The notes under the pieces were generated by a model, which was given only the letters and a program-made list of their open reading frames with translations, made no database searches and was not told the origin of the DNA. From NCBI RefSeq assembly GCF_055900595.2, contig NZ_CM148325.1: a stretch of 64,000 nt of DNA; one strand, written 5' to 3'. Below are positions 57,890 through 61,835 of the stretch, in pieces (position 1 is the first letter of the stretch; each line of letters opens with the position of its first letter). The position numbers were made by a program, and so were the translations under genes.

Positions 57890-58352
57890 CGTTTTACTCT
57901 GTGTTGGCAATAGCATGATGGGCGATGATGGCGCAGGTCCGCTGCTGGCGGAAAAGTGCGCCGCCGCGCCGAAAGGTAACTGGGTGGTGATTGACGGCGG
58001 TAGCGCACCGGAAAACGACATTGTCGCCATCCGTGAACTGCGCCCTACGCGACTGCTGATTGTCGACGCCACTGATATGGGGCTAAACCCCGGCGAGATC
58101 CGCATCATCGACCCGGATGACATCGCCGAGATGTTTATGATGACTACCCATAACATGCCGCTGAACTACCTTATCGACCAGTTAAAAGAAGACATTGGCG
58201 AAGTGATTTTCCTCGGCATCCAGCCGGATATCGTCGGTTTTTACTACCCGATGACCCAGCCGATTAAAGACGCCGTAGAAACCGTTTATCAACGACTTGA
58301 AGGCTGGGAAGGGAATGGTGGATTTGCGCAGTTAGCGGTGGAAGAAGAGTAG
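57882..58352 (+). CDS. hycI: Hydrogenase 3 maturation endopeptidase HycI
   Basis: 156 aa, [22 protein letters not shown], the hydrogenase maturation protease N-terminal motif. Confidence 0.9.
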   Translation: MTDVLLCVGNSMMGDDGAGPLLAEKCAAAPKGNWVVIDGGSAPENDIVAIRELRPTRLLIVDATDMGLNPGEIRIIDPDDIAEMFMMTTHNMPLNYLIDQLKEDIGEVIFLGIQPDIVGFYYPMTQPIKDAVETVYQRLEGWEGNGGFAQLAVEEE

Positions 58353-58376
58353 TTTTTCAGTAAGGAATTCAGGGAA

Positions 58377-59150
58377 TTGAAAATCAGAACAGGGATGTGC
58401 GCTTTTTTATTTTGCTTAGTGCTTCCTGCGCAGGCTACCAGCTTTACCGAATATCTGCCAATGAGTGACAGCGAATACGCGCAAAAGCGGGCGCTGAAAC
58501 CTCTCCTGACTATGCCTTATTATACCGAGCAAACCTGGCATTTTAGAAAAGTGGGCGTTGCTGGCGTGACGCTTGAGAAGATGCCAAATGAAGAGGATTA
58601 CTGGCAATTAACTGCTAAAGACCGCGCCGGTAAATCCTGGAAGGTGCCTGTGGGTATGCTGGCAAATATGGCGGGCAAAGGGCAACTCTATCGCGCCGAT
58701 CTGGATCGTAACGGCATTCAGGATCTGGTTATCTGGTTACCAAGTGCTGGTAATGGTCTGGCTCCTTATGCACATTTAATCCTTATGACGTTCACGCGCG
58801 ATGGTCGTCCCTGTGTCTTTGAACCCTGGGGATTCTACACCGCAAGCAAAACTGGCGTAGATGATTTGCTGGATTTGCAAGGCAATGGCCACACACAATT
58901 GCTGGATATGCAGTTTAATTCTGGTTACTGGATAACCAGTCTGTATCAGGTAAAAGACGCCAAATGGCAACGTGTTCACGGCTGGTTTGGCAAGTTAAGC
59001 TATCCCGCGCTCACGCGTTTCACTTATACCCCCAACCGTAAACTCGTCCTCAAACCCATTGCCGGGCGCGACCCGCAAACGGAAGATCTGGCGTTGACCC
59101 AGCGTTGCTTGATAACAGAGGATATGCTTGATGGGGTGAATCAGCTCTGA
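58377..59150 (+). CDS. Hypothetical exported protein with FG-GAP-like Asp/Gly motifs
   Basis: 257-aa ORF with a signal peptide (CAFLFCLVLPAQA) and DLDRNGIQD / LLDLQGNGHTQLLD motifs. I recall no gene between hycI and ascB in K-12; a REP/BIME cluster follows it. Confidence 0.6.
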   Translation: MKIRTGMCAFLFCLVLPAQATSFTEYLPMSDSEYAQKRALKPLLTMPYYTEQTWHFRKVGVAGVTLEKMPNEEDYWQLTAKDRAGKSWKVPVGMLANMAGKGQLYRADLDRNGIQDLVIWLPSAGNGLAPYAHLILMTFTRDGRPCVFEPWGFYTASKTGVDDLLDLQGNGHTQLLDMQFNSGYWITSLYQVKDAKWQRVHGWFGKLSYPALTRFTYTPNRKLVLKPIAGRDPQTEDLALTQRCLITEDMLDGVNQL

Positions 59151-59166
59151 TGCCAAACGCCAGATT

Positions 59167-59246
59167 GCCCGATGCGCTGCGCTTATCGGGCCTACATGTC
59201 GCACGAACTATGTAGGCCGGATAAGGCGTTCACGCCGCATCCGGCA
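59167..59246. repeat. REP/BIME cluster (two inverted REP units)
   Basis: gcccgatgcgctgcgcttatcgggcctaca and tgtaggccggataaggcgttcacgccgcatccggca. Confidence 0.5.
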
Positions 59247-59253
59247 CGTTTGC

Positions 59254-61835
<2,582 letters not shown>

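Follow-up and report, generated by a model that had tools for sequence, protein, structure and literature searches.

The closest described counterparts of the gene considered here are proteins of the bacterial envelope and, as regards its position, the corresponding region of Escherichia coli K-12. Among the former, PliI, X-Tfi and Tsi1 have been grouped as propeller-like proteins of the periplasm that inhibit peptidoglycan hydrolases, and the SGxxY signature is the motif of MliC/PliC (PMC8334348). The gene itself is an open reading frame (ORF) of 257 codons situated between hycI and ascB in a stretch of 64,000 nucleotides from contig NZ_CM148325.1 (assembly GCF_055900595.2), termed the window hereafter. 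An earlier note on this DNA had read the ORF as an extra exported-protein gene inserted between these two genes, which it gave as being only about 150 bp apart in K-12. This distance was right, for the K-12 interval from the hycI stop to the ascB stop (isolate MC1000) comprises 158 bp without any ORF, and the gene is indeed extra relative to K-12. The direction of the event, however, is the reverse, and the explanation that we regard as likely overall is an ancestral hycI-adjacent gene for an exported protein, which has been deleted in K-12 and in the majority of other E. coli strains.

The deletion was traced in a three-way alignment of the window, K-12 and strain 12089, complemented by a gap-tolerant pairwise alignment. 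Downstream of the hycI stop, K-12 reads TTTTTCATTAAGG-AATCAGGACAGGGATG-TTCTTGATGGGGTGAACCAGCTCTGA, three pieces that correspond to the ORF leader with its Shine-Dalgarno sequence, to nine bases of the first codons up to an internal ATG, and to the last 26 nt of the gene with the stop codon, after which TGCCAAA and then two repetitive extragenic palindromic (REP) units follow as they do in the window. The remnant of the gene (leader, first codons and last 26 nt) amounts to 55 nt, compared with the 774-nt ORF. Because both extremities of the gene (its leader and first codons at one end, its final 26 nt with the stop at the other) survive there along with the REP pair, the hycI-ascB spacer of K-12 is a deletion scar, and K-12 represents the derived state. 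Two segments are absent from K-12 (Table 1), and the larger one is delimited by direct repeats, which read GGGATGTGC at the gene start and, near the gene end, GGGATGTGC in strain 12089 or GAGGATATGC in the window. Judged from these GGGATGT-type repeats, the 727-nt loss has the hallmark of a deletion by microhomology or slippage. The earlier note had also suspected the REP cluster, or bacterial interspersed mosaic element (BIME), of being the junction of an insertion or deletion; since the endpoints in K-12 fall within the ORF or shortly before it, upstream of the REPs, which K-12 keeps, the REPs are not the junction and belong to both states alike.

An insertion, in which a foreign gene entered a short K-12-like spacer with the REP/BIME as the site of recombination, is in our estimation extremely improbable. 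It draws on the shortness of the K-12 interval, on the variability of this interval, which also takes higBA, parDE and symE cassettes, and on the GC content at third codon positions (GC3) of the ORF, which at 0.52 stays under the 0.56-0.68 of the neighbouring genes. With an overall GC content of 49.6%, the composition of the ORF is slightly under that of its neighbours and not foreign-looking. The retention of both ORF ends in K-12, the deletion endpoints upstream of the REP pair, and the identical placement of this pair in both states all contradict an insertion, as do the occurrence of the gene after hycI in four more species from three genera, a synonymous divergence saturated like that of hycI, and the absence of genuine plasmid or phage copies. 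An origin from a mobile element was pursued by tblastn and rejected, the plasmid "hits" being mislabelled chromosomes (4.8 Mb and 0.73 Mb) and the phage "hits" unannotated records of 2-4 kb.

The linkage to hycI extends across genera. In Salmonella enterica, an orthologue of 269 amino acids (aa) with 69% identity starts 26 nt after hycI of the hycA-I genes and precedes hydN-hypF on the same strand, and in Klebsiella spallanzanii a 250-aa orthologue (64% identity, phmmer) is located after hycI, among symE and parDE genes (locus L005, 5422-7814) and upstream of ascB, F and G. The order hycH-hycI-ORF recurs in E. albertii NBRC 107761 and in Escherichia sp. MOD1-EC7003. Between E. coli and Salmonella, the synonymous divergence (dS) of the ORF (1.3-1.7) and that of hycI (1.2-1.9) are equally saturated, which fits vertical inheritance at this position from at least the divergence of Escherichia and Salmonella onwards. 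The term ancestral is secure for Escherichia and Salmonella and less so deeper, because the gene is patchy in Enterobacteriaceae: within this family a species-representative scan matched Escherichia and K. spallanzanii only, the taxonomic picture being incomplete in a scan that used a 12-sequence alignment and a single narrow pattern and returned 12 loci.

The distribution within E. coli was surveyed in a census of 5,426 complete genomes with the ORF interior as query, carriers being required to cover at least 80% of it. Carriers numbered 1,461 (27%), about 840 genomes matched less than 80% of the query, and approximately 3,130 were devoid of the ORF interior; all the partial matches listed are confined to query positions 1-159 (window 58400-58558). 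The two-piece scar of the K-12 type was encountered in about 40% of an evenly spaced sample of the ranking. Several other states of the locus were recognized. In one, a 900-bp higB-higA cassette stands directly after the ORF stop with ACTGA on both sides (L002, 2451-3350); in that of S88, a deletion cuts the ORF at codon 61 and runs into the 3' end of higB, leaving higA alone (L008, 1978-2608); and a further state has higBA without the ORF. E. coli 1410D004 (L011) displays the order hycI-ORF-higBA-DUF4259-hydN without the asc operon, which resembles that of Salmonella. In the E. albertii type strain NBRC 107761 (L019), the ORF is frameshifted after about codon 81 and 38 nt of ascB are left, and many Salmonella assemblies have the orthologue broken into ORFs of 99 and 166 aa, so that it looks like a pseudogene (L031, 2692-3501), the 166-aa piece being indexed in 105 blocks of the sequence collection. 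The gene has thus suffered at least five independent inactivations. At its 3' end, hyc has a small hotspot, where an old gene was repeatedly lost and toxin-antitoxin cassettes were gained, and as things stand the gene is an ordinary accessory or ancestral polymorphism, intact in roughly a quarter of E. coli and widespread in Salmonella.

In the window, the interval forms the 3' end of the formate hydrogenlyase (FHL) operon, with hycE, F, G, H and I on the + strand; hycI ends at 58352, and the ORF starts 24 nt beyond it on the same strand. The RefSeq gene call begins at an ATG at 58395 and gives 251 aa. On the reading of the alleles, the 257-codon form is preferred, because position 58377 is a start codon in every allele read (four have TTG, YD786 and Escherichia sp. 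MOD1-EC7003 have ATG, and Klebsiella has GTG), because AAGGA lies 9 nt upstream of it, because this form adds the positively charged segment of the signal peptide, and because the N-termini of the Klebsiella and Salmonella proteins align with it. That the ORF is a real coding gene and not a chance one is evident from homologues down to E=1e-160 and from 231 clusters at 50% identity with E<=1e-3; K-12 does not carry it, and homologues abound. Beyond ascB, the window continues with ascF and ascG.

Table 1. Positions in the window of the gene, its predicted features, its flanks and the segments missing from K-12
Feature	Coordinates	Strand	Details and basis
hycI-ORF spacer	58353-58376	+	24 nt; AAGGA Shine-Dalgarno-like sequence at 58363-58367; sequence reading
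Second segment absent from K-12	58366-58381		16 nt; removes TTG start; pairwise alignment
Protein-coding gene	58377-59150	+	257 codons plus stop, TTG start; 774-nt ORF; homologues, dN/dS
Predicted Sec signal peptide	58377-58436	+	residues 1-20, cleavage between AQA and TS; hydrophobicity scan, conserved layout
Segment absent from K-12	58398-59124		727 nt, inside ORF, between short direct repeats; alignments
FG-GAP-type loop 1, DLDRNGIQD (D108-D116)	58698-58724	+	predicted Ca2+ site between strands 103-107 and 116-122
FG-GAP-type loop 2, DLQGNGHTQLLD (D166-L-Q-G-N-G-H-T-Q-L-L-D177)	58872-58907	+	degenerate; relatives have DLDGDGRAEL
REP unit 1, GCCCGATGCGCTGCGCTTATCGGGCCTAC	59167-59195	+	sequence reading; identically placed in K-12
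REP unit 2, inverted; reverse complement GCCGGATGCGGCGTGAACGCCTTATCCGGCCTAC	59212-59245	-	inverted-repeat analysis, core count
ascB, convergent neighbour	59254-60690	-	stop codon at 59254-59256

The N-terminus of the product consists of MKIRTG, followed by MCAFLFCLVLP and the segment AQA before TS, with a hydrophobic core at residues 6-16 (mean Kyte-Doolittle value 2.7), and the same layout is conserved in Salmonella, Klebsiella and more distant relatives; the earlier note had likewise seen a signal peptide. From these segments we infer with good support that a Sec signal peptide would direct export of the product, with cleavage following residue 20 and a predicted mature N-terminus of TSFTEY. 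The N-terminal helix is of low confidence in the AlphaFold2 model. A lipoprotein was considered and rejected: no lipobox is present, and the cysteines in the signal peptide vary among alleles.

An exhaustive phmmer search, clustered at 50% identity, placed 132 of the 231 clusters at E<=1e-10, and a family alignment of 72 relatives was built. Most relatives measure 330-360 aa and possess an extra C-terminal domain of about 90 aa, which the enteric proteins lack. Those of known taxonomy come from Acidobacteriota (Bryobacterales, Solibacter), an Obscuribacterales metagenome-assembled genome (MAG), Thiolinea, Pseudomonas nitroreducens and Leminorella. In a Bryobacterales MAG (L020, 2004-4024), two paralogues of 333 and 336 aa stand in tandem.

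The two FG-GAP or calcium-binding-like motifs that had been pointed out beforehand hold up in the family alignment, where no variation occurs at D108, D116 and P210 and hardly any at D110, G113 and D166; in loop 2, D166 and G171 are conserved. When the 72 relatives were scanned one by one against Pfam, 4 matched FG-GAP_3 (PF13517) at E<=1e-3 and 29 did so at E<=0.1, FG-GAP (PF01839) was matched by one and seven at the same thresholds, and PliI (PF16743) by a single relative at E=0.027, with no match to the latter for the window protein. In addition, relatives in AFDB carry the names "Periplasmic or exported protein" (E. coli 55989 B7LED0, Salmonella), "FG-GAP repeat" or "VCBS repeat-containing protein", the last two also being the UniProt names of some relatives. 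Against PDB, a sequence profile yielded only non-significant alignments to the calcium loops of integrin alpha-V (E about 0.4). By transitive homology, the protein belongs to the FG-GAP-like repeat superfamily, failing the Pfam model itself and probably not forming a full propeller. AlphaFold2, run with the 72-sequence alignment, returned a confident all-beta model of about 15 strands with a predicted local distance difference test (pLDDT) value of 92.1 and a predicted template modelling (pTM) score of 0.87; the mature protein is predicted to be all-beta and of about 27 kDa. The two Dx[DN]x[DN]GxxD loops of FG-GAP type probably bind Ca2+ within a partial, beta-propeller-like module, and a pair of cysteines particular to the enteric proteins, C146 and C244, could link the short C-terminal tail with the core. 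The exact 251-aa protein is present on 346 contigs under the names "hypothetical protein" or "Periplasmic or exported protein", and no paper on the gene was found in the literature; the gene is catalogued but uncharacterised, and its family is unnamed and has no Pfam or NCBIfam model.

Constraint on the gene was assessed by the pairwise ratio of nonsynonymous to synonymous substitution rates (dN/dS, Nei-Gojobori), both between alleles of E. coli and in comparisons with Salmonella and Klebsiella. The ratio is 0.10-0.32 in all comparisons but one, the exception of 0.58 belonging to a near-identical pair with few substitutions, and hycG, hycH and hycI give 0.00-0.10. These values indicate that intact copies are under purifying selection, several-fold weaker than that on the hyc genes. 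The E. coli alleles are unusually diverse, with 85-96% nucleotide identity to the window allele, which is itself rare: 8 of the 5,426 genomes reach 99%, and its closest relative is Escherichia sp. MOD1-EC7003 at 96.6%. Codons 61-150 (window 58557-58826) fall into two deep haplotypes, with a proportion of synonymous differences (pS) of 0.53 in codons 121-150, and some alleles are mosaics of the two, which suggests recombination. Positive selection on variable loops was also considered and found no support at the resolution of sliding 30-codon windows, the ratio of nonsynonymous to synonymous differences (pN/pS) being 0.08-0.53 throughout.

These data bear on whether the gene might be a functionless relic, that is, a truncated and decaying copy of a longer ancestral protein persisting through incomplete loss. 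The missing C-terminal domain of about 90 aa, the recurrent inactivation and a dN/dS several-fold above that of the hyc genes could all be read in this sense. Such decay nevertheless accords poorly with a dN/dS of 0.10-0.32 across Escherichia, Salmonella and Klebsiella at saturated dS, with core motifs that have been conserved, as have signal peptide and start codon, or with a pN/pS of 0.08 in codons 181-210 within E. coli, and we consider a relic quite unlikely.

What the intact protein does can be approached through its fold. The nearest fold neighbours, with the values obtained for each, are PliI-Ah (7.0; 96 of 122), UmbA4 (6.9; 116), PVL lectin (6.5; 109), X-Tfi XAC2610 (6.4; 140 of 209) and CarG (5.2; 99). 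An envelope-shielding binding or inhibitor role in the periplasm is proposed as the likeliest mechanism because the nearest neighbours PliI, X-Tfi XAC2610 and CarG act in this way, and it is put forward as a speculative and rather doubtful suggestion. Under this proposal, the periplasmic protein would bind or inhibit an enzyme or molecule that attacks peptidoglycan, shielding the cell envelope. A number of observations weigh against it. The scores of the fold neighbours are weak, and Foldseek against the PDB returned nothing significant; the window protein has no match in Pfam even at E<=10, nor in NCBIfam, PADLOC or PHROGs at E<=1, and its sequence does not contain an inhibitory motif of the SGxxY type. 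Moreover, no gene for an effector or a peptidoglycan hydrolase adjoins the ORF at any locus examined, the distant ones included: its neighbours are hycI and ascB, or higBA or hydN, without the cognate effector that would accompany immunity of the X-Tfi/Tsi1 type. Repeated loss and pseudogenisation further mark the gene as dispensable in many lineages. Membership of the PliI or X-Tfi family is not established. A conserved neighbourhood was also sought among the distant relatives and rejected, the neighbours being heterogeneous and without any toxin or hydrolase partner.

A rival candidate is a Ca2+-dependent, lectin-like periplasmic protein that binds peptidoglycan or another carbohydrate of the envelope or host without inhibiting an enzyme. 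We hold this to be unlikely, as the scores are just as weak as those of the inhibitors, no carbohydrate-active neighbourhood is conserved, only in Escherichia and Klebsiella does the gene adjoin ascB, and the protein, with only two motif copies, would not make a closed propeller.

A consensus-site scan of the spacer found nothing resembling a promoter or terminator between hycI and the ORF, and given that none separates them, read-through transcription from hyc is likely; together with the shared strand, the short spacer and the linkage to hycI across genera, this makes the gene probably the final cistron of the hyc operon, which is induced by formate, and its expression during fermentation is probable. 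The antisense symE that intervenes between hycI and the orthologue in K. spallanzanii is at odds with cotranscription in that species. If the product served the operon itself, it would be a hydrogenase accessory gene, a tenth hyc gene for a periplasmic factor co-expressed with FHL, for instance in envelope or ion homeostasis during fermentative H2 production. This would agree with the close spacing to hycI on the same strand (24-26 nt) without intervening signals in Escherichia and Salmonella, with the placement of the Salmonella orthologue between hycI and hydN-hypF, and with a distant homologue in Thiolinea disciformis. In strain DSM 14473 of the latter (L025, 936-6795), hypF-hypD-hypE, all three identified as NCBIfam equivalogs, are followed on the same strand, 95 nt downstream, by a 326-aa homologue with 38% identity; [NiFe]-hydrogenase maturation genes here adjoin a member of the family for a second, independent time. 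Unrelated neighbours surround the gene at about 12 other distant loci (menF, fruA/ugd, SOD/AhpC, purA, caspase-TPR, MagC/radical SAM and a two-component system), which detracts from the link. FHL is active in K-12 despite the absence of the gene, and for this reason the gene cannot be essential for FHL. Furthermore, hydrogenase 3 (Hyd-3) and its maturation are cytoplasmic and the protein is exported, most E. coli genomes are without the gene, and symE is interposed in Klebsiella. An accessory role in hydrogenase function is, on balance, improbable.

The broader form of this idea, a functional tenth hyc cistron encoding a periplasmic Ca2+-binding protein expressed with FHL, either linked to hydrogenase or representing a novel family of inhibitors that protect the envelope and are induced in the fermentative niche of the gut, is likewise given little credence. 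Were it true, the gene would have been overlooked because the K-12 reference deleted it, and the Thiolinea adjacency would be a real functional link of the family to [NiFe]-hydrogenase systems. A periplasmic inhibitor or a hydrogenase-linked factor, if borne out, would extend, modestly but genuinely, what is known of envelope or hydrogen physiology in enterobacteria.

Between the ORF stop and the ascB stop, two inverted REP units are found where the earlier note had placed them. Their arms are 94% complementary by inverted-repeat analysis, the core CTTATCNGGCCTAC has 4 copies in the window against 0.03 expected, and a query that includes the REPs matches E. coli genomes at a median of 37 places each, compared with one for the ORF-interior query; consensus, multiple copies in the genome and inverted pairing, by which a REP/BIME is recognized, are all present. 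Folding of the pair gives a strong hairpin (-48.3 kcal/mol, z=-3.55), and the pair would make the 3' hairpin of a transcript spanning hyc and the ORF. An Rfam scan of the interval gave nothing apart from sub-threshold matches to naRNA4, a REP-derived nucleoid-associated RNA, in 59136-59259 (E=3.9e-5; best 39.6 bits against a gathering score of 59.5).

Of the described systems, CarG, which confers intrinsic carbapenem resistance or self-protection in Pectobacterium (PDB 4o7j), is matched with weak scores, and no car gene cluster is found here. X-Tfi XAC2610, a type IV secretion system (T4SS) immunity protein of Xanthomonas citri (PDB 4qtq), has 9% identity, no loop equivalent to its inhibitory loop was identified in the window protein, and the window ORF differs from the X-Tfi/Tsi1 group in having no cognate effector gene beside it. 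PliI-Ah, the periplasmic Aeromonas hydrophila protein that inhibits i-type lysozyme (PDB 3od9/4pj2; PF16743), shows 14% identity at half the size of the window protein; its match was not recovered by Foldseek, and the window protein is without a Pfam match. The FG-GAP and FG-GAP_3 (VCBS) proteins, such as the integrin alpha propellers and the Psathyrella velutina lectin, share with it the Dx[DN]x[DN]GxxD loop between two strands and the conserved aspartates and glycine, whereas the window protein has two copies of the motif in about 235 residues, the second being degenerate (DLQGNGHTQ), and so is probably not a closed seven-bladed propeller. With the hycI-ascB region of K-12, the window shares both flanks and the REP pair; the familiar K-12 spacer is a scar, so the direction of the event is corrected, and it is the reference strain that is derived.

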